The notes under the pieces are model-generated. The model was not told where the DNA came from. It saw nothing but the letters and a program-made list of their open reading frames with translations, and did not search any database. A DNA stretch of 47,771 nt from an uncultured Thermotogae bacterium (GTDB taxonomy: Bacteria > Bipolaricaulota > Bipolaricaulia > UBA7950 > UBA9294): assembly GCA_964582975.1 (NCBI GenBank), contig CAZOUO010000002.1, positions 1-47,771 of the forward strand, written 5' to 3'. The position numbers and the translations under genes are program-made. This document shows positions 7,691 through 31,710 of this stretch, in pieces (position 1 is the stretch's first letter; each line of letters begins with the position of its first letter).

Positions 7691-7693
7691 CCG

Positions 7694-8656
7694 CTACGCT
7701 CCCACAGACTCAAGAATCTCACGCGCCAGCCTGATCTTGTCTTGCCCAGTCCGCATGATTGTATCAGTGACGACTACCTCCATCCCCATGTCCTGAATGG
7801 ACGATGCAAGCTTAGCGTCCCGTCGGTCGAGAACGAAGACACTAAGGAAGTCCGAATACTGCTCCGCCACGGCCGAAGCGGTCGCCTGAATACCGAAAGC
7901 CCGCAGCATCTGCAGAGTCGGACCCTTCACTGCACGGCCTGCAATAACCGGAGACACCGCGACCTTGACGGTGTCGACACCACATAATCGATCCCTGATG
8001 CCACGCAATGCAAGAATGGGAGCAACGCTCACTACCGGATTGGATGGCGCGATCACGATCACGTCCGCACACTCGATGCCCTCCACAAGACATGGTGAGG
8101 GCCGAGCTGCCTCAATCCCTTCGAACCGGACCCCGAGTACTTCGGGCTCCGTCCTCCGACGCACGAAGTATTCTTGAAATGGTAACTCTCCCTCCGATGT
8201 ATTCACCCACGTACTAACCGCGTCATCCGACATCGGAGCCAGGTTCACAGATACCCCCAGACTCCGCGCCAGTCTCTTGGTCACCTCGGAAAGAGAGAAT
8301 CCCTTGTTTAGAAGTGCTGTACGGACAATGTGAGTGGCCAAATCCCGATCTCCAAGTTGGAACCAAGTGTCCTCTCCATAGCGGGCTATCATTTCCAGCG
8401 CATTCCAAGTATCCCCTGCAATACCCCAGCCTTTAGGTTCATCTTGAAGTCCGGAAAGTGCGTACATCACGGTGTCCAAGTCTGGACACACACGTAGATC
8501 GTGACAGTTGAAATCATCTGCGGTGTTTACTATAACACTTAGAGACGGGCTATTCATTAAATGTCCGAGTCCATTCACCAGCTTTGCTCCTCCTACTCCA
8601 CCTGAGAGCACGACGACGTTTAGCTCATGTGCCTTTTTCCGAACCATGCTTGTCAC
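7694..8656 (-). CDS. cofD: 2-phospho-L-lactate transferase (CofD/FbiA)
   Basis: The N-terminus is VVVLSGGVGGAKL, the CofD glycine-rich motif. The start is ambiguous: GTG 8692, GTG 8656 (behind GAGAGGGA) or ATG 8647. All three overlap the cofE 3' end. Confidence 0.85.
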   Translation of the reverse strand: MTSMVRKKAHELNVVVLSGGVGGAKLVNGLGHLMNSPSLSVIVNTADDFNCHDLRVCPDLDTVMYALSGLQDEPKGWGIAGDTWNALEMIARYGEDTWFQLGDRDLATHIVRTALLNKGFSLSEVTKRLARSLGVSVNLAPMSDDAVSTWVNTSEGELPFQEYFVRRRTEPEVLGVRFEGIEAARPSPCLVEGIECADVIVIAPSNPVVSVAPILALRGIRDRLCGVDTVKVAVSPVIAGRAVKGPTLQMLRAFGIQATASAVAEQYSDFLSVFVLDRRDAKLASSIQDMGMEVVVTDTIMRTGQDKIRLAREILESVGA

Positions 8657-9446
8657 GAAAGATATCCCTCTCTGGAGAACGGAGCACCACACGGATCGGG
8701 TCGCTGGAAACTGGCCAAATCATCCCCCGAATCACTACAAGTGGAATTCCCTCGTCCGCCTGTCCCATGACGAGGTTTGCCGCTGCACATAGCTCATCGG
8801 CAATGCATTCGGAGGACCGCTTAAGGGTGTAAGAGAAGAGGTCCTTCTTCCCGCGTAAGTCAAGCAACGGCGGCAACCCGGAGACGCCGATGCACGTTCC
8901 CACCGTCCCTTTACGGAAAGGACGACCGTGACTGTCGCTTATCAATACAGCCACTTGTCTTCCATACTCCTGTCGGATGAATCCGCTAATCTCTCTCGCC
9001 GTGCCATCCGGATCACGCGGGAGTAAGCACACCACATCCCCTTCGGCACTGTTTGATCGGTCCACCCCTGCATTCGCGCTCACGTGTCCAAGACGATGCT
9101 CGGTGATGATGTGTCTGTTGCTGACGCGTACGAGTTCTCTTGCCTCGCCCAAGATCACCTCGATCGTCCGAGGGTCTCTATCGGTCTCTGCTGCAAGCTG
9201 AAGAGCTTTGGCAGACGGGACGACCGAGTCAAGTTGAACAAGACGTCCTTCTGCTCGAGTGACTATCTTGTGTGTCACGACAAGAATATCTCCGTCCACA
9301 AGGGAGAAACCACTGGCTGTGATTCCTTTCCGAATGGCATCCAGCAGATTGCCCCCAGGAGCGACCAAAGGGAAGGGAGTCACGGCCATCAACTCAAGAT
9401 GTTCCGGTCGATGGAAATCCCTTCCTTCCCTTGTCAAATCCCCCAC
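8625..9446 (-). CDS. cofE: coenzyme F420-0:L-glutamate ligase (CofE-type, no fused C-terminal domain)
   Basis: CofE blocks are GDILVVTHKIVTRAEGR, ANAGVDRSN and ISDSHGRPFRKG. The ORF starts at GTG 9446, and an internal ATG at 9389 (MAVTPFPL...) is also possible. Confidence 0.85.
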   Translation of the reverse strand: MGDLTREGRDFHRPEHLELMAVTPFPLVAPGGNLLDAIRKGITASGFSLVDGDILVVTHKIVTRAEGRLVQLDSVVPSAKALQLAAETDRDPRTIEVILGEARELVRVSNRHIITEHRLGHVSANAGVDRSNSAEGDVVCLLPRDPDGTAREISGFIRQEYGRQVAVLISDSHGRPFRKGTVGTCIGVSGLPPLLDLRGKKDLFSYTLKRSSECIADELCAAANLVMGQADEGIPLVVIRGMIWPVSSDPIRVVLRSPERDIFRDKHGSEKGT

Positions 9447-9502
9447 TTTCGATTTGTCCTTTTCTGATCTCCAAGGTTGACACTGTCTCTCGCAAAGAGC
9501 GC

Positions 9503-10057
9503 CTAAAGGGACGCCTGTTTCCGATTTCCAGAGTATCGTTCCTTATGCACCACCTCTTCAAGCGTCCGCCGTCGCCTGCCTGCCCGCTCCTCCGCAGGAA
9601 AGCCAAGGGGAAATGATCCGATGATCCGCCAGTCATCCGGAATCTCAAGCGCTCTACGAAGATTCTGCTGCCACGGGTACGGGGTGATCCAGCAACAGCC
9701 AAGCCCAAGGGCATGCGCCTCAAGCAATAGATTCATCGCGGCAGCGCTTCCGTCCATCACTGGACTCTTTGTTCCCGAATCCGGACGCACGACTAGAGTG
9801 ATCACAACCGGCGCTCCACCGATAAACTTGGCGTGGCACAGCTCAGCTAGCCGGGCGATGTTGTCGGGATCCTTTGTGACTATGAACTCTGTCGGCTCAG
9901 AACTGTGCGAGCTGGGGGCCCACATCGCGGCCTCGATGAGTCTCTGCAACATGTCTTCAGGCACATCGCGGTCCTGATATTTCCTGATGCTCCGCCGACT
10001 CTTGATCAGAGGGAGCAGATCCATCTTCTCCATACTCATTTGCGGTAGGATCCTCAA
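9503..10057 (-). CDS. stand-alone nitroreductase-fold (NTR) protein, candidate dehydro-F420-0 reductase
   Basis: The roughly 180-aa product has the nitroreductase N-terminus RRSIRKYQDRDVPEDMLQRLIEAAMWAPSS and a C-terminal GFPAEE block. It lies between the LLM gene and cofE. The ORF starts at TTG 10057, with ATG options at 10039 and 10033. Confidence 0.75.
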   Translation of the reverse strand: MRILPQMSMEKMDLLPLIKSRRSIRKYQDRDVPEDMLQRLIEAAMWAPSSHSSEPTEFIVTKDPDNIARLAELCHAKFIGGAPVVITLVVRPDSGTKSPVMDGSAAAMNLLLEAHALGLGCCWITPYPWQQNLRRALEIPDDWRIIGSFPLGFPAEERAGRRRRTLEEVVHKERYSGNRKQASL

Positions 10058-10061
10058 GGTG

Positions 10062-11063
10062 CTATCGAAAGGTGCTCATCACTTCACTGGCAAATCGTTC
10101 CAGTGCTTCGGTTCCTTGTGAAAACGTCGCTCCCCACAGGAGCATCGCAAACTGGTTCATTCCAAGTGATTCGAGCTGTCGCAACTTAGTGATTATCTTC
10201 TCCTTGTTGCCGATGAGGCTCAGCTTGTCTATGTCTGCGTCAGTCACATGTTTGGCAGCTGCACCAGGGCCACCCCTTTCGTAGTCTGCTTTCAACTGCT
10301 TCAGGCACTCCGGGTCCAATTCCAGCGCATTGAGTATCGGCCCCGGTGCACCGCCAATGATGTGGGCTATTGTGGGGCGCACATTGTCCATCGCAGTTTC
10401 AACATCATCGGTCAGTCGAGTTGTCACCCAGCTCACGGAGTATGGCAACGGCCTCTGCTTCGCTGACCGCTCCATTCCCTTCCTTATGTTGCTGAATGCA
10501 AAATCCAACCCCGCCTTGGAGATAAGAGCGCCGATTATTACACCATCGGCTACCTTCCCGGCTGCTTGGAGTGTTGCTGGTCCCCGTCCAGCGATGAAGA
10601 GAGGCGGGGGTGGTCCAAGATCGCCTTCCAAGTGGACATCATCTACGTCAAAGAAATCGCCGTGGTAGGCTACCGTTTCGCCAGCGAGCAACGGGCTCAT
10701 AATCTGGACGGCCTCCTTACACGCTCGGGCAGGGCGATGCTGATCAAGGCCTAAGGGAGTAAGCAGCTCTTTGCGATTACCCGCTCCGATTCCGAGCGAA
10801 AACCGATTCGGAAAAGCTTGAGAAAGAGTCCCGATTGCTCGGGCAATCTGTACCGGATGACGCGTGTACGGATTGGTAACGCCAATGCCAAGATGGATAG
10901 ACGAGGTCCTCTCCGCGATCAGGCCGAGCGCAACAAACGGATCCTGATAGAAGGTCTGATCTGGCAGCCACGCGTAATCGTACCCCAGTTGCTCCCCTTG
11001 CTGTGCCAGCCGCCTTAGCTCATCGACCCTCAATTGATGGAGCAGTGCAAATCCAAATTCCAT
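10062..11063 (-). CDS. LLM-class F420-dependent oxidoreductase (Mer-like)
   Basis: The 333-aa product has luciferase-like/Mer-like blocks IHLGIGVTNPYTRHP, LGIGAG and LFIAGRGPATLQAAGKVADGVIIG. It lies 8 nt downstream of the enolase-superfamily gene and 4 nt upstream of the NTR gene. Confidence 0.8.
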   Translation of the reverse strand: MEFGFALLHQLRVDELRRLAQQGEQLGYDYAWLPDQTFYQDPFVALGLIAERTSSIHLGIGVTNPYTRHPVQIARAIGTLSQAFPNRFSLGIGAGNRKELLTPLGLDQHRPARACKEAVQIMSPLLAGETVAYHGDFFDVDDVHLEGDLGPPPPLFIAGRGPATLQAAGKVADGVIIGALISKAGLDFAFSNIRKGMERSAKQRPLPYSVSWVTTRLTDDVETAMDNVRPTIAHIIGGAPGPILNALELDPECLKQLKADYERGGPGAAAKHVTDADIDKLSLIGNKEKIITKLRQLESLGMNQFAMLLWGATFSQGTEALERFASEVMSTFR

Positions 11064-11071
11064 TCAAACCC

Positions 11072-12202
11072 CTATGTCTCTATTTCAAATCGATCGATGA
11101 GATACTTCTCCACTTTCGTCATATCTAAATCCCCCCCCAGGCCTGGAGCCTCCGGCACGACCAGGCACCCTTCCTCAAAACTCATCGGCTCGGTGCCAAC
11201 ATCCTCAACCAGCATGAATCGACCACCCATCTCACCCCCGTACACGACGGAAGGGGAAGAGCAGGCGAGATGGACGCAGGCACGGGCCCCAATAGGCCCC
11301 TCCAATGCCCCACCGATGTAGCACTTTAGCCGTCCCACCTCTGCTACCGCGATCATCTTCTTGGCATTAAGAAGTCCTCCTGGCGGGTTAACATACACGC
11401 TGATGACGTCAGCGGCACGATGCCTGATGATCTCATAGACATCGTGAGGAGAATTGGCAGCCTCATCGGCCATTATTGGTACACTTACGCTTTGATTGAC
11501 GATTGCCAGTCCTTCGACGTCCGCTCCATACACAGGTTGCTCCATGAATGCGATGTTATAGGGTTCAATCGCATTGATTACCTTGATCGCCGTTTTGACA
11601 TCGTAGGCTTGGTTCGCGTCGACTCGGATGCTGATTTCATCTCCGACTGTTTTGCGCATCCGTTTGACCATTTCCACATCATCCATTGGATCCTCACGTC
11701 CAACTTTCACCTTAAATACGCGGATCCCCTTCTTCATCATCTCCTCGGCCTCTTTGAGGCCTGCATCGAAATCAACTATGGGAATTGACCAACTCAGAAG
11801 CATCGCGTCTCGACACTTGCCGCCCAGTAGGTTGTATGCAGGTGTGTCCAGTATCTTCCCTGTAATGTCGTACAGAGCCATGTTAACGGAGCTCTTGGCT
11901 CTTCCATTCCAGGGGAGTGCTCGGTCCAAGGCAACCTGATGTTCTTCGATTCGTGTAGGGTCCTTGCCCAATACAGCAGGAATCAAGAAATCGCGCAATG
12001 CCGTCGCAACCGTTTGCTGAGTCTCCCCATAGCCGGAAAAGCGCACCATGTGGGGTGCCTCCCCCAAACCGGTGATCCCTTCGTCAGTAAACAGTCTCAA
12101 GAAAACACACTCCTGGTGATGAGTGGTCCCGATCGCCATCTTGTGGGCCCGTGTCACGGGAATCTTAGTCAGAAAGACCTCGGCCTTCGTAATCTTCATC
12201 AA
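11072..12202 (-). CDS. mandelate racemase / muconate lactonizing enzyme family protein (enolase superfamily, MLE-like subgroup)
   Basis: It has the KxK motif FKVKVG (K164/K166) and metal ligands in IRVDANQ (D195), MEQP (E221) and MADE (D246). Where the second catalytic Lys is expected the sequence reads DVISVYVNPPGG (Y270). Confidence 0.85.
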   Translation of the reverse strand: MMKITKAEVFLTKIPVTRAHKMAIGTTHHQECVFLRLFTDEGITGLGEAPHMVRFSGYGETQQTVATALRDFLIPAVLGKDPTRIEEHQVALDRALPWNGRAKSSVNMALYDITGKILDTPAYNLLGGKCRDAMLLSWSIPIVDFDAGLKEAEEMMKKGIRVFKVKVGREDPMDDVEMVKRMRKTVGDEISIRVDANQAYDVKTAIKVINAIEPYNIAFMEQPVYGADVEGLAIVNQSVSVPIMADEAANSPHDVYEIIRHRAADVISVYVNPPGGLLNAKKMIAVAEVGRLKCYIGGALEGPIGARACVHLACSSPSVVYGGEMGGRFMLVEDVGTEPMSFEEGCLVVPEAPGLGGDLDMTKVEKYLIDRFEIET

Positions 12203-12209
12203 CTACCTC

Positions 12210-13298
12210 CTATTTCTTACCGGTCTGCATGTACGTCTTCAGTTGGTCGACGGTCATCCCTGCAATGCCAAGCTTCTCTACAGTCCTACCGATACTCCAG
12301 TAGTCAACACCCTCGGCAACGGAGAGGATCGTCGTGATGGCGTGGCACATCGGCGTTGGCACCCCCAACATGTCTCCCAATGATGCCATCTGAACCATCC
12401 CGTAAGGGATGTCTTCCTTCGTGTAACGCGGCCAGATTCGATCCTTCTTCTTCATCGCAAAGGGTTCTCCCGGCTTGCGATAGACGTCCGGCGAGCTGCC
12501 GAACTCGATGTACAGGGAATCAACGTCCACTGGCTCCACACCAAGGGTTTTGAGCAAGGCCTGCTTTTCCGCGTCCACGGCGTCCATGCATTTCAGAACT
12601 GCCTTGGTCATCCCTTCGTTCATAATCGAAAGGAGTCCCTCTCGCCGTTCGACTTCCGCGAAGTTCAGTACCATTGGCGCCGGGTGAATGATGAAGTTGG
12701 GGTTGTTGAGCCCCGAATCGAAGCAATGGACGGCCCGCTTGACTTTGAAGAGGGGTGCGAGGCGTTCCAAAACTGCATCCGTGTTCTTCCCGGGGAACGC
12801 CGCAGTGCGAACCTGGGTGTCTCCCAATGCTACCTTGATCGTCCCATCGTCGATGAAACGGGCGGATCGCGGCATCGTCACCGTCTCGCCAAGATGCACA
12901 TCGTTCATGAAATCGACTCCCCGGTCCGAGAACTCCTCGTAGATGGCGAGGCTTGCCGTCGACCCAGAGCAGAACACCACGAGATTACCGGGCTCAAGGA
13001 ACGGGAAAACCTCTCGCATCATTGTGGCCTGCGCGTAGGCAGGAACTCCAATCAGATAGATGTCGCGCCCCTTGAGTGCCTCATCAGGGTTGGTGGTCAC
13101 GATTGGCAGCTTGACGAAATCCGCCGGGAACTCACCCTCAATCTTTAGTCCACCTTGTTCAACGATTTGTTGGAGCCTCTCCTCAGATCCTCTGAAGCCC
13201 GGGCACTCGAACACCGAGACATCGTGCCTCTTCGTCACGAGCCGAGCGGCCAACGCTAGGGCGGCAGGGCCGGCCCCCAATACTGCGATCTTCTCCAT
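12210..13298 (-). CDS. NAD(P)-dependent opine dehydrogenase family protein (octopine/nopaline dehydrogenase-like)
   Basis: The N-terminus is a Rossmann motif, KIAVLGAGPAALALA. Family-typical blocks, as I remember the Arthrobacter opine dehydrogenase, are GETVTMPRSARF, NNPNFIIHPAPMVLN, VDAEKQALLKTLGV and YTKEDIPYGMV..LGVPTP...GRTVEKLGIAGMT. Confidence 0.78.
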   Translation of the reverse strand: MEKIAVLGAGPAALALAARLVTKRHDVSVFECPGFRGSEERLQQIVEQGGLKIEGEFPADFVKLPIVTTNPDEALKGRDIYLIGVPAYAQATMMREVFPFLEPGNLVVFCSGSTASLAIYEEFSDRGVDFMNDVHLGETVTMPRSARFIDDGTIKVALGDTQVRTAAFPGKNTDAVLERLAPLFKVKRAVHCFDSGLNNPNFIIHPAPMVLNFAEVERREGLLSIMNEGMTKAVLKCMDAVDAEKQALLKTLGVEPVDVDSLYIEFGSSPDVYRKPGEPFAMKKKDRIWPRYTKEDIPYGMVQMASLGDMLGVPTPMCHAITTILSVAEGVDYWSIGRTVEKLGIAGMTVDQLKTYMQTGKK

Positions 13299-13300
13299 TT

Positions 13301-14491
13301 CTACCCCCTAGCGACGAAGAGATCCCGTGAAAGCGGCGTTAGATCCTCGTATCCCGTATCAGTGATCAGCAGGTTGTTCTCGATTCCGAAGTTCCCGATA
13401 CGGCCTTCCTTGTCACGGAAGATCGGTTCAACGGTCACCACCATACCGGTTTTCAATGGCTGCGAGTTCGTCACCGCGATGTTGGGCGGCTCATGTACGT
13501 CCAAACCAACGCCATGTCCGATGCGCTCCATCGTCCCAACGTGCTCGGAGAATCCCAAATGGTCGAACACTTCGACCGCTTCTGACACCACCTCGCATGC
13601 TGGAACACCGTCACGCAGCTTCTGAACAGCCGTCCACTGCGCCTGCTTCTCGGCTTCGAAGAAAGCCAGCTGTTCGTCTGTAGGTCCGCCGATGTTCGCC
13701 ATGCGCATCATGTCGCACCAGTAGTCGTTGTACGTAGCCCCTGCATCGAGAAGAATCATGTCGCCATTTTCCATGCGCTTGGCCTTGAACGGTGGTACGT
13801 TCACCATCTTGTACTTCAGGGGACCTGAGCGAACCACCACAAAACCCGGCTTGTAGGCTGTCTGCCTGGCCATCTCCTCGAACATCGCTCCCGCGAGATC
13901 CTGCTCCGACAGACCGGCGCGCATCACCTCAAATCCTCTCTCGAACGATTTGCAGGTAGCATCGCATGCCTTGCGTAGATACTCGATCTCCCTTGGCGTT
14001 TTGATCACGCGTAGCTCCCAGATCAGCTGCGCCGCGTCGGTCAGAGTGGCCTGTGGCAGTTGCTTCTGAAGGTCGAAAAACTCGGTCATGTGCATGGCAA
14101 GATACATCTCTTCGCCAAACTCCATCCCAATCCGTGCCTTCTCAAGCCCCAGTTGCCTAAGAACAGCTACAACACCTTCCACTGGATTCTTTGCCGCATC
14201 CTTGACCCGCCAGCCACCCCACAGATACCGCTTCTTGACCCAGCTCGTCTGTTCCCCCACGCTCTCCAACGATTCGGGAAGGACGAAGATCGGTTCCTCA
14301 CCTTTGGCCATGATCAGAGCAAGAGGCCGGGTCTTCGTGTCCCAGCCAACTGTCTGCAGGCCACTGAAGTAAAGAACGTTCTCCTTGGCTGTGACCATCA
14401 CCGCATCGAGATCGGATGCCTGAATCAGTTCCTGAAACCGTTTATACCTTTCGACGTATTCCTCATCCGGGAACTGCGAATACTTCGCCAT
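13301..14491 (-). CDS. M24 family metallohydrolase (creatinase/prolidase-like)
   Basis: The 396-aa product has a creatinase-type N-domain (DAVMVTAKENVLYFSG) and an M24 catalytic core (LLDAGATYNDYWCD, GHGVGLDVHEPP, TVEPIF). Confidence 0.85.
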   Translation of the reverse strand: MAKYSQFPDEEYVERYKRFQELIQASDLDAVMVTAKENVLYFSGLQTVGWDTKTRPLALIMAKGEEPIFVLPESLESVGEQTSWVKKRYLWGGWRVKDAAKNPVEGVVAVLRQLGLEKARIGMEFGEEMYLAMHMTEFFDLQKQLPQATLTDAAQLIWELRVIKTPREIEYLRKACDATCKSFERGFEVMRAGLSEQDLAGAMFEEMARQTAYKPGFVVVRSGPLKYKMVNVPPFKAKRMENGDMILLDAGATYNDYWCDMMRMANIGGPTDEQLAFFEAEKQAQWTAVQKLRDGVPACEVVSEAVEVFDHLGFSEHVGTMERIGHGVGLDVHEPPNIAVTNSQPLKTGMVVTVEPIFRDKEGRIGNFGIENNLLITDTGYEDLTPLSRDLFVARG

Positions 14492-14569: not shown

Positions 14570-15445
14570 TCAATCCCCCCTTAGGCGCGGATCGAGCTCG
14601 CGCTCGTACGCACGGGAGATGAAGAAAACGCTCATCACGATCAGCATGATGGCGAGCCCCGGAAACAACACCCACCACCACGCATATCGAATTCCACCCG
14701 TCGCGAAGCACATGTTCAGGAGCTTTCCCCAACTCGGCGTTTTCGGGTCACCATATCCGAGGAAGCTGACGTTTGCCTCAACGATGATTGCCCATCCCAT
14801 TCCCAAGGCAACATATATTGCCGAAATCGGCAACACATTGGGCAAGATATGAACGAAAAGAATCCGTGTTCGTGAAACACCTATCGCCTGTGCCGCCTCC
14901 ACGAAGACCTCCTTACACACGGAGAGGGCTTCTGCACGGACAACACGCGCCGACGAACGCCACATCAGCAGGGAGGTTGCCAAAACGATTGTCCATATGC
15001 TTGGAGACAGAAAGCTCACAATCACGATTACGAATGGCTCCAGCGGAATCGAGTAGCAGATGTCTACCAAGCGCATCAGCCCCTCATCGACCCAACGCCC
15101 GAAGAAAGCGGAGGTAACCCCAACCAGTGTCCCCAAAGAGGTGATCGCGAGGGCCGTCAGCCCTCCCACCATGAACGCGGCCCGCGTGCCGTAGAGCACT
15201 CCGCTGAATACATCTCTCCCCATATTCGTAGTCCCGAAAGGGTACTCAGCAGATGGCGGGTGAAGGAAAGGAACCTTGTTGTTCCCATCCCGGATAATCT
15301 CGTCCGGTTCGTAGCGCGCGATGTAAGGAGCTGTTATTGCGATCACTGCATAGCCTAAGATAATGATCAAACCCAGAAGGGCTAGCTTGTCACGCTTGAA
15401 CACCTGTAACTGTCTTTTGCGAAATGGCCTATTTTCCAATGCCAT
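14570..15445 (-). CDS. ABC transporter permease (DppC/OppC-like)
   Basis: The 291-aa product has 6 TM segments and the EAA-type loop EAAQAIGVSRTRILFVHILPN. Its N-terminus resembles OppC family proteins. Confidence 0.9.
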   Translation of the reverse strand: MALENRPFRKRQLQVFKRDKLALLGLIIILGYAVIAITAPYIARYEPDEIIRDGNNKVPFLHPPSAEYPFGTTNMGRDVFSGVLYGTRAAFMVGGLTALAITSLGTLVGVTSAFFGRWVDEGLMRLVDICYSIPLEPFVIVIVSFLSPSIWTIVLATSLLMWRSSARVVRAEALSVCKEVFVEAAQAIGVSRTRILFVHILPNVLPISAIYVALGMGWAIIVEANVSFLGYGDPKTPSWGKLLNMCFATGGIRYAWWWVLFPGLAIMLIVMSVFFISRAYERELDPRLRGD

Positions 15446-15459
15446 CCTCTATTCCACTC

Positions 15460-16428
15460 CTAATCGTAGGTGATCCTTGGATCAAGTGTTGCGTATGTCA
15501 GATCGGCGATGATGTTCATGATCACGATCATGACTCCGATCAGCAAGAACGCACCCTGGGTCACCGGGTAGTCCCTCATTTTGATACCCTCAATGATCGC
15601 TCGCCCGAGGCCAGGCCAGCTAAATACGTATTCAAGAACGGACATCCCGGCAACGGCCAACCCAATATGTGTCGCCGCCGAGGTCACAACCGGAAGCAGC
15701 GCGTTTCTCAACACATGCTTGATTGTCACCGTACTCTCCCGAAGTCCTTTGGAACGAGCCGTCCGCACGTAGTCCGCGGGTAGATGGCGAAGCATCGCGT
15801 TTCGCAGAAGAAGGGTGGGAAAACTGATGAAATAGGCAGTCATCACCAGAGTGGGAAGGATCAAATGGTGCAGAAAATCCACGTTCAGGTAGACCCAGAT
15901 ACCCGTCTCCTTGCTGCCAAAGGATCGTATCCCTGCATAAGGAAACCATCCAAGATAGAACGAAAAGACCATGATAGATAGCATTCCCGTCCAAAAGACC
16001 GGTGGGGCGCGAAGGACCAGGCATATCGAGACTAGCGCGGATTCTATCCACGTGCCTCGTTTTGCTGTCATGATGAGTGAAAGAAGGATGGCCAGTCCGT
16101 AAGTAAGGACGAATGCGGCCGCCGCAAGGATCAGCGTGTTTGCCAACCGACCTTTGATCACATCGATGACCGGGCGCTGTTGAAGGAACGATCTTCCGAA
16201 GTTGAGTCGAAGCAGGTTGGTCACATAGCGAAGGTACTGCTCGTGCATTGGCTTATCCAGGCCAAATGATGCCTTCACTTGCTGCCGCATTTCAGCAGGC
16301 AAGAGCGGACTTAGCATTACGGCAGCGGGATCACCAGGGAGTAGGCGAAACAGGATGAAGGCGATCGTAATAATCGCGATGATTGTTACAATTGAAGTCG
16401 CAAATCGCCTTAAAAGGAAGGTCCCCAT
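15460..16428 (-). CDS. ABC transporter permease (DppB/OppB-like)
   Basis: The 322-aa product starts LLRRFATSIVTIIAIITIAFILFRLLPGDP. It has the loop YVRTARSKGLRESTVTIKHVLRNA and the tail DPRITYD. Confidence 0.9.
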   Translation of the reverse strand: MGTFLLRRFATSIVTIIAIITIAFILFRLLPGDPAAVMLSPLLPAEMRQQVKASFGLDKPMHEQYLRYVTNLLRLNFGRSFLQQRPVIDVIKGRLANTLILAAAAFVLTYGLAILLSLIMTAKRGTWIESALVSICLVLRAPPVFWTGMLSIMVFSFYLGWFPYAGIRSFGSKETGIWVYLNVDFLHHLILPTLVMTAYFISFPTLLLRNAMLRHLPADYVRTARSKGLRESTVTIKHVLRNALLPVVTSAATHIGLAVAGMSVLEYVFSWPGLGRAIIEGIKMRDYPVTQGAFLLIGVMIVIMNIIADLTYATLDPRITYD

Positions 16429-16517
16429 GTTTCCTCTGTGTCAGTCGTTGTTCTTTCTAAAAGAGGAGCCCGACCCTCGGCGGACCAGGCCCCTTCAGAG
16501 AAACTCTTCGGCGCTCC

Positions 16518-18197
16518 CTATCCCGGCTGCCCGGGCCACTCGGGCGCGTCCTTGAATCGTTCCTCGCTGTTCTCCCACACCTCCGGGTAACAGAGTTTCC
16601 CCTTGTTGTCCCATTGGTAGCCTGCCCCTTCCAACAGTTCCCTCGCCTTGTCGAGATCAAACGGCGGGATAACTAGGTTAGGGTTGTTCCAGAATTCATT
16701 GGCCGGTGCGATGAACGACTGCCCTGCAACCGCCCACCCCTTGAGGATGACATCGACGATGAAGTCGTAATCAAACGTGTAAGCGAGTGCCTTCCGGAAC
16801 AGGCTGTCCCGTCCCGGTAGAATCCGCGTGTTCCATCCCATATAGTAGACGCCGAAATCCTCGAGGATGGACAGTTCGATGTTCAGGTTGCCTTTCGCTT
16901 CCTCGATTTGCTCCGGAAGAAGTCGGCGTTCGTGGAAGTCAATGTCCCCAGCCATCAGCGCCTGGAAGATCACCTCAGGATTCTGAAGGTTGATGAACAG
17001 GAAGTTCACCTGCGGTGGCTGATAGTGGTTCTCATTCGCCTCCAAAAACAATTCCTGCTCCCGTTTCCAATACCCCCACTTGAAGGGACCACTTCCTACC
17101 GGGTCGGGGTTCTCCCACTCATATGGTGTGGTTACACCCTCGAAGGACAAAACATCCTTCCAAATGTGCCACGGCAGGATATAAACCTGGGCAAAGGTAG
17201 TCTGGTACACCCCAGGATATGGATCCTTCAGCTTCATCCGTAGGGTCAGACTGTCCACGACTTCAATTTCCTCGAACGCTTTGGTGAACGGCGATAGCTC
17301 CGGCTGTTCCCACTCCGTCATGAACTCGTAGCTGAACTTGACATCGTGTGCGGTGACCGGCATGCCGTCATGGAAGAACATGTTCGGACGAAGACGAACA
17401 AGAATCGTCGTCTCGTCCTCGGCCTCCCACGACTCGGCCGCCGAGGAGACTGGCTTTCCATCCGTCCCAATCCGGGTTAGTGTATCATACACCAACCGCA
17501 TCAGATCAGGGTTCAACCCCGCCATGAAGTTCATGGGGTTAGACGTGCCGATGTCGTTGTGCCGTGCGAACCGTACCGTCTTATCGTCGGTCAGCGGACG
17601 CAGGTTCAACAGATTCCACACGTGCCACAGGTTGTATCCTACCATGGACGTCCAGCCCTCGAACCGTCCAATGCCATGACCAACAGCAGAGACTACGTGA
17701 TACAGAGGCTTCGCTGGCACCTCCTGGTTGATGTACTCCTGGCACTGCCACACAAGTTCTCGTCGTTTCTCGATGTCCATCTCCGTTCGTTGAGCCGTGA
17801 CAAGTTCGTCGTAGTAGGCGGAGCTAAACGCCGCGTAGTTCGTCCCGTCCTCCCCGATGTTCGAAGAGTGAAACGGCCAATAGAGCAACACGTCGGGGTC
17901 CAACCGCTCTGGCCTCGACACGAAACCGAACACCCACGCGCTATAGTCGTCAAACGGTGGCTTTCCAAGACGCTCAGCTGAACCCGCATAGTCAAGCTCG
18001 ATTAGCTCAACTGTGAGGCCGAGCTCCTCCCAGTTCCGCGTAAGCATTTTCCCCGATTCATTCCTCACCGGATCCCACGATGCAGCTGGGATGACGAACT
18101 GAATCGGGTCAACGGGCGTCAATGCTGACACACTCAATCCGACGCCCACGCACAATAAAACTGCAATACCCACTATCCACGTATTTCTAGACCTCAC
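16518..18197 (-). CDS. ABC transporter substrate-binding protein, family 5 (peptide/opine/nickel type), with permuted block order
   Basis: The 559-aa product starts at GTG 18197 behind AAGGAGG and has a signal-like N-terminus. Family-5 blocks (AESWEAEDETTILVRLRPNMFFHDGMPVTAHDVKFS; PVGSGPFK; ARELLEGAGY) are present. The normally C-terminal block comes first (see findings). Confidence 0.85.
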   Translation of the reverse strand: MRSRNTWIVGIAVLLCVGVGLSVSALTPVDPIQFVIPAASWDPVRNESGKMLTRNWEELGLTVELIELDYAGSAERLGKPPFDDYSAWVFGFVSRPERLDPDVLLYWPFHSSNIGEDGTNYAAFSSAYYDELVTAQRTEMDIEKRRELVWQCQEYINQEVPAKPLYHVVSAVGHGIGRFEGWTSMVGYNLWHVWNLLNLRPLTDDKTVRFARHNDIGTSNPMNFMAGLNPDLMRLVYDTLTRIGTDGKPVSSAAESWEAEDETTILVRLRPNMFFHDGMPVTAHDVKFSYEFMTEWEQPELSPFTKAFEEIEVVDSLTLRMKLKDPYPGVYQTTFAQVYILPWHIWKDVLSFEGVTTPYEWENPDPVGSGPFKWGYWKREQELFLEANENHYQPPQVNFLFINLQNPEVIFQALMAGDIDFHERRLLPEQIEEAKGNLNIELSILEDFGVYYMGWNTRILPGRDSLFRKALAYTFDYDFIVDVILKGWAVAGQSFIAPANEFWNNPNLVIPPFDLDKARELLEGAGYQWDNKGKLCYPEVWENSEERFKDAPEWPGQPG

Positions 18198-18259
18198 TTA
18201 TACCTCCTTTCCTTACTTGGTTCACTTGTTTCTACAGGCCACACGTTCTCCCGTGCATA

Positions 18260-19687
18260 TCACCTCCTATTTAGATTTAGTGGAGAGGTTAAGGCACATA
18301 CTTCGTCGCATTTCTCAAGATTGCGTATGACTCCAAGCATTTGGTCGCTTTGCTCATTGGTAAGTACCATTGATGCTTGATTACGAAACTTTCGCTCCAA
18401 TTCCTCATCTCCCAGTGGTCGATCAGGCGTTCCGCGGGCATCCACTGTAGTTGCAGAAAAACCCCTGTCGCGTCCCTTGGCAAACACCGAAACCGTCGAT
18501 TGCTCGTGCTCGGGGAACTGTCGGCTTGCCGACGTGTCTTCCACGACAGAAATCCTTTCCGCCAACGCAAGCACCTTGTCATCATCAACTGCTTCGGCAG
18601 CGAACTCTTTAGGCGTTAGTCTTCCATGTGAAACAAGCAAAGCCAGACAGAAGGGCAGCGAGAATTGAGCTTCCGTGAACGATGCCGGACGAGGAATGTT
18701 ATGGTACTCGTCTGTAAGGAGCGCGAACGTCGCTACCTCTATCCGCTCAATTTCGTCGTGCACTACGGACTCAGCTGAAATGATCTGTTCCATCGATTCC
18801 AAGGACGTGTGGAGAAAACGGCAGGTTGGGTACGGCTTGAATACGACCTGCTCGATCAAGAAGCTCTTCCCCAACCCGTCTGAAAGTCCTGAAAGTCCCA
18901 ATTGATCATTTCTCCTCTCCGTCCAGAATCCCAACTCGCCGTCCAAGCAGTTATCCTGAGCTCGAAATCCCTCTGCTGCCAGCAGGGCCGCTTCCAGGCC
19001 CGCTTGTACTGACCATCCGTAGCCGGACTTGAAATCGCTACGCACTCCCATAAGCGATTTTTCTTTCCGGATCATCGGTAGCGGAGCAGTGCTCAAGGAT
19101 GTGCCGAGGGCGTTGAACGTCTGCTGTGTATTCAGTTCGAGAATCTTCGAGGCAGCTGCCGAAGCCCCAAGCGTCTGCAGGGTTCCCAGATCCCAGCCCC
19201 CACTAAACCGTGTGAACTTTGGTTGCAGGCAGGCCATACAGCGAACCGCCACCTCGTAACCGACTACGACAGCCTCCAGGAATCTTCTTCCCGAGACGCG
19301 GAAAGCCTCGCCCAAAGCCAGTGCAGCCGGGATGACTGTGGATCCATGGTGCCCCACAAGAGTATCGTCGTAGTCGAGAGCGTTGGCCAGTCCCGCATTC
19401 GCAAAGCCAGCCAAGATGGGAGAAGTCCTTAATCCATCTGCAGACAGGACCGTTGCTACCTCCTCGCCAGGCCATCTCCTAGCCAAGCGCATGAGCTGTT
19501 CTGATATGGGAGTAACATTCCCCCCGAGTGCACAGCCAAGCGTGTCGAGCGCACAACGTTTCGCCGCATTTAGGGTGCTAGAAGAAAGGTCGTCAAACGT
19601 GGTTTGCACAACTGAGTCCGAGAGCTTCCACGTTGCCCCCACGAAAGGCTGTCTAGCTGCCGGTGATCTATTGTTCTTGTGTCTCAT
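18260..19687 (-). CDS. MmgE/PrpD family protein
   Basis: The 475-aa product has PrpD-family blocks AKRCALDTLGCALGG and YDDTLVGHHGSTVIPAALALGE plus a C-terminal PrpD domain. It overlaps the GntR gene 3' end by 20 nt. Confidence 0.82.
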   Translation of the reverse strand: MRHKNNRSPAARQPFVGATWKLSDSVVQTTFDDLSSSTLNAAKRCALDTLGCALGGNVTPISEQLMRLARRWPGEEVATVLSADGLRTSPILAGFANAGLANALDYDDTLVGHHGSTVIPAALALGEAFRVSGRRFLEAVVVGYEVAVRCMACLQPKFTRFSGGWDLGTLQTLGASAAASKILELNTQQTFNALGTSLSTAPLPMIRKEKSLMGVRSDFKSGYGWSVQAGLEAALLAAEGFRAQDNCLDGELGFWTERRNDQLGLSGLSDGLGKSFLIEQVVFKPYPTCRFLHTSLESMEQIISAESVVHDEIERIEVATFALLTDEYHNIPRPASFTEAQFSLPFCLALLVSHGRLTPKEFAAEAVDDDKVLALAERISVVEDTSASRQFPEHEQSTVSVFAKGRDRGFSATTVDARGTPDRPLGDEELERKFRNQASMVLTNEQSDQMLGVIRNLEKCDEVCALTSPLNLNRR

Positions 19688-20483
19688 TCTCCAGAAGGGC
19701 TAGCCAATCTGCCATCGCGCGCATCACGTGATCCCGAGCCATTGAAGCTGCCTTCTCGGCATCACGAGCGCGAAGGGCTTCCAAGATTTTTCTGTGCTCC
19801 TGAATCGATTTTCTCGAGCGCTTCACTGAAGGAAGGGCAAACAGTGTAACCCTGGATCGCTTCAGGTAGTCAATTGAAGCAAGGACCATTTCCAGCAAGG
19901 GAGCGTTCTGGGCCGCTTCGGCAACGGCCCGGGTAAACGCTCGATCGGCATACAACATGCCTGTCTTGTCTTCCGTCTCCACGGCCACTTCCTGCTCGTG
20001 TAGCGCCTCCTCCACTTTCTCAAGGTTTCCCGACTGCAGGCGCCTCGCTGCGAGATAAGCGGCTTCAGCAAAGACTGCCCTGTGGACTTCGAAGTATTCC
20101 AGAACCTCCTCTTTCCGCGCCTGAATCTGCCTGTGGATTAACTGTGTCTCGGCATTCTGCCCATTGAGTCCAACAACAAATGCTCCCTTGCCAGGCTTCA
20201 CTGCGATGTACCCAACGGCTTCGAGAGCGCGCAACGCTTCACGAACCGGATTTCGGCTCGTACCGAATTGTTCAGCAAGAACCCGCTCACCTGGAAGCTT
20301 CTGACCCAGCCCCAATTGGCCCTCCCGGATCATCGTCTCAATCTGCCTAGCAATCTGCTTCGATGTCCGGAGTGCTTCGACTGGCTGGAAGAGCGTGTGC
20401 TTGGATTTAGAATCACCGGCTTTGCTTTCAGGCACTGTTCCCTCCGAAGCCAAGCGCGCTGCCGTCCGCCAGAGCCATAGCAT
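19668..20483 (-). CDS. GntR family transcriptional regulator (FadR/FCD subfamily)
   Basis: The winged HTH reads LPGERVLAEQFGTSRNPVREALRALEAVGYI, followed by an all-helical FCD-type C-domain. A GTG at 20435 behind GGAGGG is a plausible alternative start. Confidence 0.85.
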   Translation of the reverse strand: MLWLWRTAARLASEGTVPESKAGDSKSKHTLFQPVEALRTSKQIARQIETMIREGQLGLGQKLPGERVLAEQFGTSRNPVREALRALEAVGYIAVKPGKGAFVVGLNGQNAETQLIHRQIQARKEEVLEYFEVHRAVFAEAAYLAARRLQSGNLEKVEEALHEQEVAVETEDKTGMLYADRAFTRAVAEAAQNAPLLEMVLASIDYLKRSRVTLFALPSVKRSRKSIQEHRKILEALRARDAEKAASMARDHVMRAMADWLALLENETQEQ

Positions 20484-23980: not shown

Positions 23981-25114
23981 ATGTTGACTCTCTCAAACGC
24001 CGCGATCTACACACCGACGCATTATCTTCCACAGGCGACCGTGGTGGTTGATCGAGGTCGGATTAAGCGGATCAGCCAAGGAAAATCTAGTAAGGGAGAG
24101 TCCCTGGAAGGATACACCATCATCCCGGGGTTCGTCGACACGCACATCCACGGATACGGAGGATGGGACACCAACGATGCCACCAAGGACTCCCTTTTGG
24201 CCATGGCAGAAGGTCTAGTCCGGCACGGTATCACGGGCTTCTTACCCACGACCGTTACCACCTCTTATCAGAACCTGTTGGCCTGTGCTCGCGCCACCTC
24301 CAAGGCGATCCAGGCGCAAAGCGAAGGTGTCGGCGGCGCCAGGATCATAGGCCTCCAATTGGAGGGGCCGTTCATCAATCCCAAAAAGAAGGGGGCACAA
24401 AACCCTGATTACATTCAGCGCCCCAATTGGGAAGCACTCGAGGCGATCCACCAAGCCGGCAACGGGTGCGTTCGTGCCCTGACCATCGCCCCGGAGCTCA
24501 CGGGAGCCTTCTCCGTGATCGAGCAGGCCACTGCAGCCGGGTGGATCGTTTCACTCGGCCACAGCAACGCAACCTACGACGAAGGCATGCAGGCCATTGT
24601 GGCAGGTGCCACGCGAGCTACTCACCTTTTCAATGCAATGGCGCCCCTTCACCACCGACAACCCGGACTCGTCGCCGCGTGTCTGGAAAGCCCACAAGTG
24701 TTCGTCGAGCTGATCGCTGACCTTGTCCACGTCGCACCGCCCCTATTGCGTCTTACCCGCCAGATAGTGGGGGCTCAAAGAGCGGTACTAATCACGGATT
24801 CCATTTCCGCAACAGAGCTTCCCAATGGGGCCCACTCTCTCGGCGGGTTGACAGTCACCGTGGAGAACCACGTTGCACGACTGGAAGACGGTACTCTGGC
24901 CGGAAGCACGCTGACGATGGATCGGGCCGTACTGAACGTGACGGCCATCGGGGTCCCGTTCCGTGAGGCGTTGATGATGGCAACCGCTGTGCCGGCCCGC
25001 TCCATTGGGGAACGGATCGGCACCATTCAACCGGGCGGAGTAGCCGATTTTCTCGTCCTGAATGAGGACCTGTCCATTAGCCGCGTCTACGTGGCTGGCC
25101 ACCGGATGGTCTAG
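23981..25114 (+). CDS. nagA: N-acetylglucosamine-6-phosphate deacetylase
   Basis: The 377-aa product has the metal site GFVDTHIHGYGG, the ELAPE-like block LTIAPEL, and the NagA blocks SLGHSNATY and HLFNAM. Confidence 0.92.
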   Translation: MLTLSNAAIYTPTHYLPQATVVVDRGRIKRISQGKSSKGESLEGYTIIPGFVDTHIHGYGGWDTNDATKDSLLAMAEGLVRHGITGFLPTTVTTSYQNLLACARATSKAIQAQSEGVGGARIIGLQLEGPFINPKKKGAQNPDYIQRPNWEALEAIHQAGNGCVRALTIAPELTGAFSVIEQATAAGWIVSLGHSNATYDEGMQAIVAGATRATHLFNAMAPLHHRQPGLVAACLESPQVFVELIADLVHVAPPLLRLTRQIVGAQRAVLITDSISATELPNGAHSLGGLTVTVENHVARLEDGTLAGSTLTMDRAVLNVTAIGVPFREALMMATAVPARSIGERIGTIQPGGVADFLVLNEDLSISRVYVAGHRMV

Positions 25115-25878
25115 TCTCCGGTCCAGGTCTCCACTGAGACACCTCGCCGATGCTCTCCCTGAAGATGCGCCGCTGCGTGCTGTTCCACAACGACGGTGAC
25201 ATCCGGATGCAGCTGGAGAATCGACGCCGGAACGCTTCTTGAAACGGCTCCGAACAGACTTTCCCGGACAATTTCCGCTTTTTCGACACCGTTTACCAAT
25301 AACAGGATCCGTCGGGCATTCATGATCGTACGAATTCCCATCGTGATCGCATACTGTGGCACGCCCTCCAACGACCCGAACAGCTCCGCCTCCCGCTGCC
25401 TTGTCTCCAAAGAGAGCCTTGCGAGATGGGTCGCGCTACCAAAGGGCGTGCCGGGTTCGTTGAATCCAATGTGTCCGTTTTGTCCCAATCCCAGAACCGC
25501 GAGATCAATGCCTCCGCGTTCGGCAATCCGGCCCTCGTAGCGATCGCATTCAGCTTTGTGGTCTGAGGCAAGGGAGTTCGGAATATTGTGCTCGCGTACC
25601 GCCACGTGCCGAAGGAAATGTGTCTCCATGAACCGGGTGAAGCTCTGCGCGTGATCAGGTGGAATCTCGTAGTACTCATCCAGATTAAAAAAAATAACAT
25701 TGCAGAAATCTACCCAGCCATCGTGGTAAGCAGCGATCAGCTCTCGGTACAACCCCATCGGGGTTCGCCCTGTCGGCAAAGCGATCACCGTTCCTGGCCA
25801 GCACAGCACCTCTCGGCACACGTGCCGAGCAGCAGCACGAGAAAGCCTACCATAATCCTCCACCACGATGATCCGCAC
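25111..25878 (-). CDS. nagB: glucosamine-6-phosphate deaminase
   Basis: The 255-aa product starts at GTG. Its blocks are LPTGRTPMGLYREL, FFNLDEY and LGLGQNGHIGFNEPG. Confidence 0.92.
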   Translation of the reverse strand: MRIIVVEDYGRLSRAAARHVCREVLCWPGTVIALPTGRTPMGLYRELIAAYHDGWVDFCNVIFFNLDEYYEIPPDHAQSFTRFMETHFLRHVAVREHNIPNSLASDHKAECDRYEGRIAERGGIDLAVLGLGQNGHIGFNEPGTPFGSATHLARLSLETRQREAELFGSLEGVPQYAITMGIRTIMNARRILLLVNGVEKAEIVRESLFGAVSRSVPASILQLHPDVTVVVEQHAAAHLQGEHRRGVSVETWTGD

Positions 25879-26046
25879 CTAGTTACCTCCGGCAGTGCGC
25901 AATCGAAGTCGCTCCTGAAAAAGGAGTCGCACCCCCAGGCCCCTCCCACCAAGATGCAGGGGGCCCCATGCGGTCGGCAGGTCACGCTCCCGCACTGTGC
26001 CAGCTGTCAAATCAACATCCAGGTATCGATGCCACAAACCGTCCAT
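25879..26046 (-). pseudogene. relic of an aldehyde:ferredoxin oxidoreductase (AOR family) N-terminus, 55 codons
   Basis: MDGLWHRYLDVDLTAGTVRERDLPTAWGPLHLGGRGLGVRLLFQE matches the AOR N-terminal pattern (W.R...V.L..G........LGGRGL...LL.E). ATG 26046 sits behind GGAGAGGTG. Its TAG stop abuts the nagB GTG start. Confidence 0.55.
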
Positions 26047-26071
26047 CGTGCACCTCTCCTTTCTCTGAGGC

Positions 26072-26761
26072 CTAGGTTTTCGCTCCCAGAGTTGCGACAA
26101 ATCGTTTTGTGGTCGTCAGCGGATTCGTAATTGCCTGCCCGACAACTACGGCAAAAGCGCCTACTTTTAGTGCCTGGCGCACTTGGGCTGGAGTCGTGTA
26201 GCGCCCTTCCGCGATCACTGGAATATCTAGCTTCAACGCGAGCGCGCTCACAAGGTCGAAGTCCGGTCCGACCATCTGCGCTGAGTATGGGGTGTATCCT
26301 GACAAAGTCGTCGCCACGATGTCTGCGCCCGCCTCTGCAGCGGAAAGTCCCTCCTCCACCGTCGAGACGTCCGCCATTACCAACACGGAATGCGACGACT
26401 TGAGCTCGGCGGCGATGTCACTGAACGCCCCAACGCCAGAGGGACGCGGCCGTTTTGTTGCATCCATCGCTACGATCTCCGCACCCGCGCGCACCACCAC
26501 TTCGGCGCTCTTGAGATCCGGTGTGATCCAGCCCTGGGGGGCGAGGTCACGGCGCTTTAGAATTCCAATCACAGGAAGAGAGACCCGCTGCTTGATTGCT
26601 CGAATGTGATCTTCACCATTTGCTCTGATGCCGACCGCACCTCCGAGTTGAGCTGATTCAGCCATGGCTGCCATGTAGTTGGGACCATCGAGTGGTGTAC
26701 CTGGGGTAGCTTGACACGACACGATCAGCCCGCCTTCAATCTGCCGCAAGATTTGGTCCAT
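26072..26761 (-). CDS. nanE: N-acetylmannosamine-6-phosphate 2-epimerase
   Basis: The 229-aa product has the NanE N-terminal block GGLIVSCQA plus AVGIRANG, VIGILKR and AMDAT. Confidence 0.9.
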   Translation of the reverse strand: MDQILRQIEGGLIVSCQATPGTPLDGPNYMAAMAESAQLGGAVGIRANGEDHIRAIKQRVSLPVIGILKRRDLAPQGWITPDLKSAEVVVRAGAEIVAMDATKRPRPSGVGAFSDIAAELKSSHSVLVMADVSTVEEGLSAAEAGADIVATTLSGYTPYSAQMVGPDFDLVSALALKLDIPVIAEGRYTTPAQVRQALKVGAFAVVVGQAITNPLTTTKRFVATLGAKT

Positions 26762-28055
26762 TACTTGCTCCTCCTAGTTTTGCCAACAGTACGGTAGCCT
26801 CCTCTGCAAGGATTTCTGCGCTCCGCCAGTCAAAACAGCTGATCTGGGCCTCGTACCAGCCTGCATCTGTGGCTGATCGATCGGGAAAGTAGCCAACATA
26901 ACCGTTCGAACAGCCAAACACCGTCACTTTCTGCTCCGGCCTCTTGGTCGCTCGCACTCGTTGCACGAGAGAGTTAAAGGGTTCCCCGGGAACCGCAATG
27001 AAGATTCCGTCTCCAAGCCGAACCCCTTTCAGAACGACGGTTTCCCCGCCTCGCGCCAGGCACCCAGACCGAAGCAGGTCCAGCAGTCCTCTGGCCCCTT
27101 CAAGACGCGTCTCAATGACACGTCTCTCCCCAGGATGGTTATCCTCAACACGTTTTCCTGCCAGTCGCCCCTCCAAGCGGTCGATCTCCGTTTGTGCGTG
27201 CACCACGCTAGACGCGGGTTTGTACGGAAGCCAGCAGCTGCGTTCGCCGACCGTTAGGCACGCTCCACCCCGGGTGCGTATGCCGTCGGTGACGTCCAGC
27301 ATCGCCACGGACAGGATGCGGCTCAGATGCTTAAGCTCTTCAAAATTCTGTGCCTTGCGGCAAAACCGAGTACTGACATCGCCCGAAGCGCCGTTTGTGA
27401 CAGCGATAATCGCTGTCACATCCCCAACCAACTCTGCGTTGCTTGCAGCGGTTCCAAGCAAATCAGCGGAGAGGTAGCGGTTGTCCGACCCCAATACGGT
27501 GGAATGGCAGGGAAAGTTAGCGAGTGCCCCGCGCAACCTTCCCGACGTATCATCGATCCGCAATAACCAAAGGGAGTCATCGATCGATCGCGTCCAGTCC
27601 GTCCGATGACTCGCGATCCCCGGGACACGCTCGCAGCCCACACCGAGTCTTGCAGCAAACATCGACGCGGCAGCCCGGCGAACGGCCTCTCGCGTCCCTG
27701 CCAGCAATGCTTTGCCCTTCCGCTCCTGAAGATCGGAACGGGGGCTGACGCACCCAGTGTCAACAAAACCCGCTGGTCCTGCGTGTGTGTGGGTGGCTGC
27801 CGCGACCACGTTCTGAGCAGCGATACCGGCGATCTCCTGAACCACTGCTTGAAGCGCTTTGACCCACTCAGCCGATAAACCCAGCACGTCCAACACGAGA
27901 ACGCCTACGGCCGCCACATCATCCTGAAAAAGGAAACAGCGCGCGGAGAGCCGGTCATGGATTCCGACGGACCGACCATCTCTGGCGACGTACCCCCCCA
28001 TGGGCATGCCAACAGGCGGCGTGATGTCTCCCTTACCGAGGCCAACGAGCATCAT
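26736..28055 (-). CDS. neutral/alkaline ceramidase N-terminal-domain-like amidohydrolase
   Basis: GKGDITPPVGMPMGGYVARDGRSVGIHDRLSARCFLF...NVVAAATHTHAGPAGF matches the ceramidase N-domain pattern (DIT..MGY...GIH.RL.AR.F...THTH.GP.G). ATG 28055 forms an ATGA overlap with the kinase stop, and the track ORF starts at 28064. Confidence 0.7.
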   Translation of the reverse strand: MMLVGLGKGDITPPVGMPMGGYVARDGRSVGIHDRLSARCFLFQDDVAAVGVLVLDVLGLSAEWVKALQAVVQEIAGIAAQNVVAAATHTHAGPAGFVDTGCVSPRSDLQERKGKALLAGTREAVRRAAASMFAARLGVGCERVPGIASHRTDWTRSIDDSLWLLRIDDTSGRLRGALANFPCHSTVLGSDNRYLSADLLGTAASNAELVGDVTAIIAVTNGASGDVSTRFCRKAQNFEELKHLSRILSVAMLDVTDGIRTRGGACLTVGERSCWLPYKPASSVVHAQTEIDRLEGRLAGKRVEDNHPGERRVIETRLEGARGLLDLLRSGCLARGGETVVLKGVRLGDGIFIAVPGEPFNSLVQRVRATKRPEQKVTVFGCSNGYVGYFPDRSATDAGWYEAQISCFDWRSAEILAEEATVLLAKLGGASNGPNLAAD

Positions 28056-29041: not shown

Positions 29042-29053
29042 GAAATTCCTCCC

Positions 29054-29770: not shown

Positions 29771-29823
29771 GTGTTCCTCCTTGTATTTGAAGCGGTCCCG
29801 ACCGAGCCTTGCCTCCTTGATGT

Positions 29824-31627: not shown

Positions 31628-31710
31628 ATTTCACACTTAACGAACAACAGGCACGACGCGGATAAGAAATCGGCAGCGACCGACTCTCACCCGCGTCGAC
31701 CCTTATACTC

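Follow-up and report, generated by a model that had tools for sequence, protein, structure and literature searches.

A stretch of 47,771 nucleotides from an uncultured Thermotogae bacterium (contig CAZOUO010000002.1, placed by GTDB in the Bipolaricaulota; hereafter the window) carries, at 16518..18197 on the minus strand, a gene for a family-5 (cluster C) substrate-binding protein (SBP) of ATP-binding cassette (ABC) importers, in which the two sequence blocks that make up the fold are exchanged. Profile and alignment evidence confirms the exchange and, together with a structure model and homologs of the same order, supports a genuine circular permutant of the family-5 fold. The permuted order is not a peculiarity of this genome and marks an old, widespread family. 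We read the product, with a probability of roughly 0.9, as a functional, exported binding protein of an Opp/Dpp-type ABC importer, whose chain is a natural circular permutant descended from an old event. Family 5, or cluster C, is the largest group of ABC binding proteins and among the best studied; its members serve the uptake of peptides, nickel, opines and oligosaccharides and have been used as biosensor scaffolds.

Block order and predicted fold

The gene is complete, consisting of an uninterrupted open reading frame (ORF) of 559 aa plus a stop codon, and all of its parts lie on the minus strand. A strong ribosome-binding site precedes it, with the Shine-Dalgarno sequence AAAGGAGG (18203..18210), read directly from the DNA, separated by a 5-nt spacer from the GTG start codon (18197-18195). 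The protein begins with MRSRNTWIVGIAVLLCVGVGLSVSA, and inspection of residues 1–25 (18123..18197) reveals a Sec-signal-like N-terminus with a positive n-region, a hydrophobic core and the motif SVSA, standing ahead of the transplanted block, as a preliminary description of this DNA had noticed. The first block, block B (aa 31–201; 17595..18107), had been placed in that description at aa ~35–200; it is the counterpart of the canonical C-terminal third, comprising the second half of lobe II and the last lobe-I segment, and corresponds to residues 359–495 of AppA. Next comes the junction LTDDK (aa 202–206), at which the canonical C-terminal end is fused directly to the canonical N-terminal start, as judged from the canonical profile, the alignment to the relative P0232, model confidence and base composition. 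This pentapeptide does join the two blocks as first described, at 17580..17594 rather than at ~17580–17597. Block A (aa 207–532; 16602..17579; AppA 23–345; hhalign E 3.6e-91) is the counterpart of the canonical N-terminal two thirds, that is, lobe I including its extra domain, the hinge and the first half of lobe II, and runs up to the AGY helix and a small hairpin. The C-terminal tail past the cut loop (aa 533–559; 16521..16601) is poorly conserved, with a predicted local distance difference test (pLDDT) value of 65 in the last block; across the permuted family, C-termini stop at WD..G.L.YP or soon after. The GC (guanine plus cytosine) fraction is even along the gene, at 0.53–0.57, with no break at the junction.

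Block order was assessed with a canonical profile hidden Markov model (HMM) of 505 positions, built from 107 canonical-order relatives. The native protein gave two non-collinear domains, aa 31–201 on positions 338–503 (independent E-value, i-E, 5e-35) and aa 206–532 on positions 3–327 (i-E 3.9e-85). Both blocks jointly cover 492 of the 505 profile positions without duplication and so span the whole canonical fold; the proposal that the length of the protein equals one complete fold, and not a fragment, is borne out. A re-permuted sequence assembled in silico, aa 204–559 followed by aa 27–203, matched the same profile as a single collinear domain over positions 3–503, with an E-value of 1.2e-119, and each of the two canonical paralogs in the window also gave one collinear domain. 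About ten profile positions are absent from the permuted protein; they correspond to the hairpin loop that follows the ‘...AGY-D-DGDG’ motif, and the new termini sit there. Membership of the Pfam family SBP_bac_5 (PF00496) is clear, at 196.6 bits against a cut-off of 32.4 (E 8.8e-58), with the match falling into two stretches, the better of which pairs aa 249–535 with HMM positions 2–286. The outcome named beforehand as speaking against a permutation, a single collinear full-length alignment to canonical PF00496 members, did not occur, the protein splitting into two non-collinear domains instead.

Individual canonical proteins revealed the same exchange. A sequence search of the PDB paired aa 229–531 with residues 45–348 of AppA (1xoc) and aa 34–167 with residues 362–488, and both swapped matches held when a profile of 43 family members was compared with AppA (i-E 1e-57 and 5e-16). 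In BLASTP against P0232, the closest canonical relative, the native protein aligned in two pieces, aa 204–527 on 35–355 (E 1e-52) and aa 52–207 on 391–543 (E 3e-18), and the re-permuted sequence aligned as a single high-scoring segment pair of 539 columns (1–532 versus 35–538, E 4.5e-73). Swapped segments, together with a collinear full-length alignment once re-permuted, are the signature of a natural circular permutant, and both are found here. The preliminary description had aligned block B to the C-terminus of a window paralog. The order it deduced is real by the profiles, but the pairwise similarity on which it drew is insignificant: block B alone scores E 0.28–0.55 and 0.012 against the window paralogs, and the blocks are 23–26% identical to them. 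The significance of the block B match therefore comes from profiles and closer canonical relatives rather than from pairwise comparison with the window paralogs. A further detail was corrected: the paralog at 31711-33303 has 152 aa after the motif LLKEAGYQGE, not ~190.

AlphaFold2, run with the family alignment, predicts a confident single fold for the permuted protein (pLDDT 92.5; predicted template-modeling score, pTM, 0.88), with pLDDT 93–98 over the junction and below 50 at aa 1–22. The canonical sister P0232 was also modeled, at the same quality. Written as strands (E) and helices (H), block B reads E H E H E H H H E H in both models, and block A reads E H E E E E H H E E H H E E E H H E E H H E H; apart from one extra short helix in block A of the permutant, the element lists are identical after a cyclic shift. 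As a control, both models were compared with NikZ (4oet) using Foldseek, a sequential aligner. The canonical sister aligned over 517 columns (template-modeling score TMt 0.92, E 1e-45) and the permutant over 361 columns (TMt 0.57, E 5e-19), a shortening expected from a sequential aligner given a circular permutation. The model predicts a complete bilobed fold, including the extra domain.

The path of the chain can be described from these comparisons. After the signal peptide, the chain would begin midway through lobe II, with the strand that canonically follows the ‘...AGY-D-DGDG’ helix and hairpin. It would then traverse the normal C-terminal end, pass through the join of about five residues into the normal N-terminal lobe-I strand, and continue through lobe I and the hinge into the first half of lobe II, where it would end. 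Every fold element would be retained, only the chain ends shifting from lobe I to lobe II, and the number of hinge crossings would probably stay at two. This arrangement was inherited from an old event and not created in this genome.

Distribution of the permuted order

Homologs with the same order are found among database proteins, genome loci and metagenome contigs. All 120 listed database homologs are collinear with the query, covering 81–99% of it in one alignment, down to 30% identity. Of the top 150 proteins in an exhaustive search of 1.84 billion cluster representatives, ~130 fit the permuted profile over its whole length without a break, and 256 of the 381 proteins fetched were classified as having block B before block A. 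More than 250 sequences show strong conservation, and each of the two blocks contains invariant residues.

A scan of species-representative genomes yielded 80 loci, all collinear with the query, the closest being in a metagenome-assembled genome of the Bipolaricaulia at 57% identity. These loci span Bipolaricaulia, Chloroflexota, Thermotogae, Armatimonadota, Desulfobacterota, Bacillota, Spirochaetota, Actinomycetota and Alpha-, Beta- and Gammaproteobacteria. Cultured carriers include Evansella halocellulosilytica, Oceanobacillus halotolerans, Planococcus, Billgrantia endophytica, Aquibium pacificus and Alkalispirochaeta alkalica DSM 8900. The gene also resides on plasmids or megaplasmids, in the haloarchaea Halalkalicoccus jeotgali B3 (WP_238532955.1), Haloferax and Haladaptatus as well as in Neorhizobium galegae and Ketogulonicigenium vulgare, where the annotation reads only ‘ABC transporter substrate-binding protein’. 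Signals ahead of block B vary across the family between Sec, lipobox with a long linker, and Tat (RRxFLK) types.

This distribution bears on whether the order could be an artefact of assembly or annotation: a false join between the 3' part of one binding-protein gene and the 5' part of a different one, or two neighboring genes fused by a frameshift. The window is a single metagenome-like contig, and its two other family-5 genes could in principle recombine in an assembler. Against this, an ORF with block B before block A and the same cut loop is present at 84 of 84 fetched loci of different organisms, complete isolate replicons among them (block B start at HMM positions 330–351; block A end at a median of 327). 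A search of metagenome contigs, queried with a 75% homolog of the window protein, placed a 75%-identical gene with the synteny of the window in three independent metagenomes of the Joint Genome Institute (JGI). The chimeric junction at 17.6 kb that had been named as the other outcome to look for is ruled out by these contigs and by the complete isolate genomes; composition is unbroken at the join, and the divergence of the blocks from the window paralogs shows that they are not copies of them. An artefact has virtually no probability left.

Nearly as improbable is that the gene is a decaying fusion of fragments, with the N-terminal block a leftover of a truncated gene and no complete binding protein encoded. 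Little follows the AGY motif, and the C-terminus lacks the canonical end of the fold, which at first sight resembles truncation. Decay is contradicted by the near-complete, non-redundant coverage of canonical positions, by sequence conservation across the family with its invariant residues, by the confident single-fold model and by the conservation of operons with permeases and ATPases.

Known relatives and the origin of the block order

The permuted protein shares with the canonical cluster C proteins (DppA, OppA, AppA 1xoc, NikA, NikZ 4oet) the Pfam family PF00496, the set of secondary-structure elements and their cyclic order, a mature size of ~530 aa, an export signal and DppB/DppC-type permeases. 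It differs from them in having the canonical C-terminal ~170 aa first, with the new termini in the lobe II hairpin loop. The solved structures of this family all share a single chain topology: no PDB chain with the permuted order was found among 115 sequence matches, all of canonical order, and 156 Foldseek matches; in NCBIfam, no model is collinear with the permuted protein, all matches lying far below the cut-offs.

The only natural precedent found is TpMglB-2 (Tp0684) of Treponema pallidum, a ligand-binding natural circular permutant of cluster B with a family of homologs, for which the designation ‘cluster Bc’ has been proposed (PMC4990184). Three strands of its N-lobe lie at the C-terminus instead, and its hinge has gained a fourth crossover (PMC4990184). 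Both proteins are natural permutations of an ABC binding protein, each with a homolog family, but TpMglB-2 has the type I, cluster B glucose-galactose fold, whereas the window protein is cut inside lobe II of cluster C, with two crossovers that are probably unchanged. All sequence and structure matches of the window protein are to cluster C, and it does not belong to cluster Bc. The preliminary description knew of no permuted family-5 binding protein, and none was found in full-text literature searches, whose scope excluded InterPro, CDD and ECOD notes and subscription-only papers; matches were limited to TpMglB-2 and engineered sensors, apart from two irrelevant incidental co-occurrences. A permuted family-5 topology is thus probably, though not certainly, undescribed. 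It is a topological variant of a known fold and not a new system, and implies no new function.

The closest canonical-order sequences are P0232, P0227, P0261 and P0323, from Sulfolobales, Korarchaeota and other archaea, which align with the re-permuted query in one piece over ~535 aa, at 29–30% identity. These archaeal-type proteins have an N-terminal signal and, unlike the window protein, a C-terminal Ser/Thr-rich linker followed by a transmembrane anchor. Six archaeal proteins among the P0232 matches have block B before block A with the same cut loop as the window protein, after ‘...AGF-DIDGDGI-E’; they form group X (P0326, P0332, P0344, P0356) and group Y (P0327, P0330). Both groups keep the C-terminal linker and anchor, placed after block A, and are 39–42% identical to canonical archaeal proteins versus 29–32% to the window’s family.

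Neighbor-joining trees of re-permuted and canonical sequences, with 200 bootstraps, recovered the window’s family as a clade with 72% support (62% in an earlier, larger neighbor-joining tree). Group Y joined canonical P0323 in all 200 replicates, and groups X and Y fell outside the window’s family, with no replicate uniting all permuted proteins; the trees and diagnostic columns leave the position of group X and the root of the main family undecided. The topology suggests more than one change of block order, each at the same loop, through independent permutations or reversions, or else that rate differences mislead the tree. The second of these options corresponds to an account in which the permuted order arose once, was functionally neutral, and only seems to have several origins; we give this account somewhat less than an even chance. 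In its favor, the cut site is identical in all groups, neighbor-joining is sensitive to rate differences, and residues common to the archaeal permuted groups and their canonical relatives may be ancestral. Against it are the constant grouping of P0327 and P0330 with P0323, the failure of any replicate to unite the permuted sequences, and the different cut site in the modules of P0165 described below.

A bolder scenario, which we think unlikely, is that the block order flipped at least twice, perhaps three times, at one hairpin loop, inside a clade made up of both archaeal and bacterial members of family 5, with a second cut site in giant multi-module surface proteins. Were it true, such repetition would imply that selection favored chain ends, and with them the membrane tether, on lobe II in place of lobe I; the geometry of the tether (an N-terminal lipid anchor or a C-terminal transmembrane helix) or lobe dynamics would then matter for docking to the transporter.

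As to mechanism, the permuted gene most likely arose from a canonical archaeal-type gene by in-frame tandem duplication or fusion, with the first block A and the last block B lost afterwards. The standard way for a permutant to form is by duplication or fusion and later removal of the outer blocks, and the seamless join fits it. Because the N-terminal signal and the archaeal C-terminal anchor are retained, this route would require internal in-frame deletions and not simple trimming of the ends.

Several of the proteins encountered have additional modules. P0327 and P0330 also bear an MG2/CarboxypepD_reg-like domain. In P0165 (4308 aa), a module is permuted elsewhere in the fold, with residues 17–340 on HMM positions 184–504 followed by residues 349–536 on positions 3–184, and a partial second module permuted in this way lies within residues 2733–3168, beside two canonical modules. 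P0250 (2754 aa) contains four canonical modules in tandem.

Operon context and implications

Directly downstream of the permuted gene, and like all genes of this run on the minus strand, lie a DppB/OppB-type permease gene (15460..16428; Pfam BPD_transp_1 and BPD_transp_1_N) and a DppC/OppC-type permease gene (14570..15445; OppC_N and BPD_transp_1). They are followed by a co-oriented run of catabolic genes, identified by Pfam (10062..14491), for an M24 creatinase/prolidase-like protein (13301-14491), an octopine-dehydrogenase-like protein (12210-13298), an MR/MLE enolase (11072-12202) and a luciferase-like monooxygenase (10062-11063). Upstream and co-oriented, again by Pfam, are an MmgE/PrpD-family gene (18260-19687) and a GntR/FCD regulator (19668-20483). 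The catabolic set is linked to the closest homologs at loci L001, L002, L004, L005, L014 and L081-L083, and the MmgE/PrpD and GntR/FCD pair is syntenic in L001 and L081-L083. Among the 80 genome loci, a permease B homolog follows the permuted protein at 72, permease C is present at 64 and DppD/F-type ATPases are present at 61; H. jeotgali has a full operon in the order SBP, permease, permease, ATPase, ATPase.

The window itself holds three family-5 ABC systems (14570-18197, 29824-33303 and 41528-47150), and genes for DppD/F ATPases occur only in the third (41528-43512), the first two having permeases without ATPases. Two operons without ATPases beside a third with them suggest that the ATPases are shared among the family-5 systems of the window. 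The permuted protein probably works as the receptor of an ABC importer, presumably after export. It would capture a small amino-acid-derived solute and pass it to the two permeases whose genes lie next downstream, with ATPases supplied in trans in this genome.

Several points weigh against this picture of an exported, permuted transport receptor. The operon of the permuted protein in the window has no ATPase genes of its own. The identity of the fold rests on model confidence, the order of secondary-structure elements and sequence profiles. No clear relic of a duplication was found, beyond a weak overlap, by 10 residues, of the HMM coordinates that the two ends of archaeal members match. Finally, the substrate, a dipeptide-like or opine-like amino-acid conjugate, is a low-confidence guess from the gene neighborhood, suggested by the conserved M24, opine-dehydrogenase-like, MR/MLE, PrpD-like and GntR neighbors.

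The absence of ATPase genes would also suit a true permutant that serves as the partner of a sensor (chemotaxis, two-component) or as an enzyme derived from the scaffold, instead of a transport receptor, and binding proteins are sometimes recruited for signaling. Such a role is improbable in view of the two permease genes that directly follow in the window, the complete operons of SBP, two permeases and two ATPases at 61 of 80 homologous loci, and the fact that another family-5 operon of the window also lacks ATPases while the third has them.

Variations in gene organization were seen at the homologous loci. In Billgrantia endophytica, the DppC-type permease (L058:8637-10379) has 580 aa, with an insert of ~300 aa that separates the OppC_N helix from the permease core and weakly matches a BNR/beta-propeller-like domain (PSII_BNR); both ATPases are apparently fused there in one ORF of 809 aa (L058:10268-12697). 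About 25 other loci have a gap of ~1 kb between the matches to permease B and permease C, and a gene of the MR/MLE enolase superfamily lies between both permease genes at L029:8664-9821 and at 21 other, mostly proteobacterial, loci.

Two further gene groups occupy the window. Directly downstream of the catabolic cluster is an F420-related run (4919-11063) with the luciferase-like monooxygenase, a nitroreductase, CofE (F420-0:gamma-glutamyl ligase), CofD, CofC and two radical-SAM CofG/CofH-like proteins; the run is also linked to the homolog in L081. The second family-5 operon stands amid amino-sugar/sialic-acid-type genes (25111-35125), which encode NanE, a glucosamine-6-P isomerase-like protein, an amidohydrolase, an SIS protein (29054-29932), a BadF-type kinase/ATPase (28052-29041), a GFO/IDH/MocA protein, a GntR-UTRA regulator and a ceramidase-like protein. 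These surroundings suggest an amino-sugar substrate for the canonical binding protein of that operon.

The permutation explains why domain annotation reaches only about two thirds of these proteins, and annotation pipelines and the structure-based clusters A–G could gain a ‘Cc’ subclass, comparable to the ‘Bc’ of TpMglB-2. The natural cut loop offers a validated permutation site for sensor design. The family also provides material for testing whether tether position or chain connectivity influences folding, docking and the dynamics of the hinge; being large, natural and rotated in its chain, it is a natural experiment on where the fold tolerates new termini.

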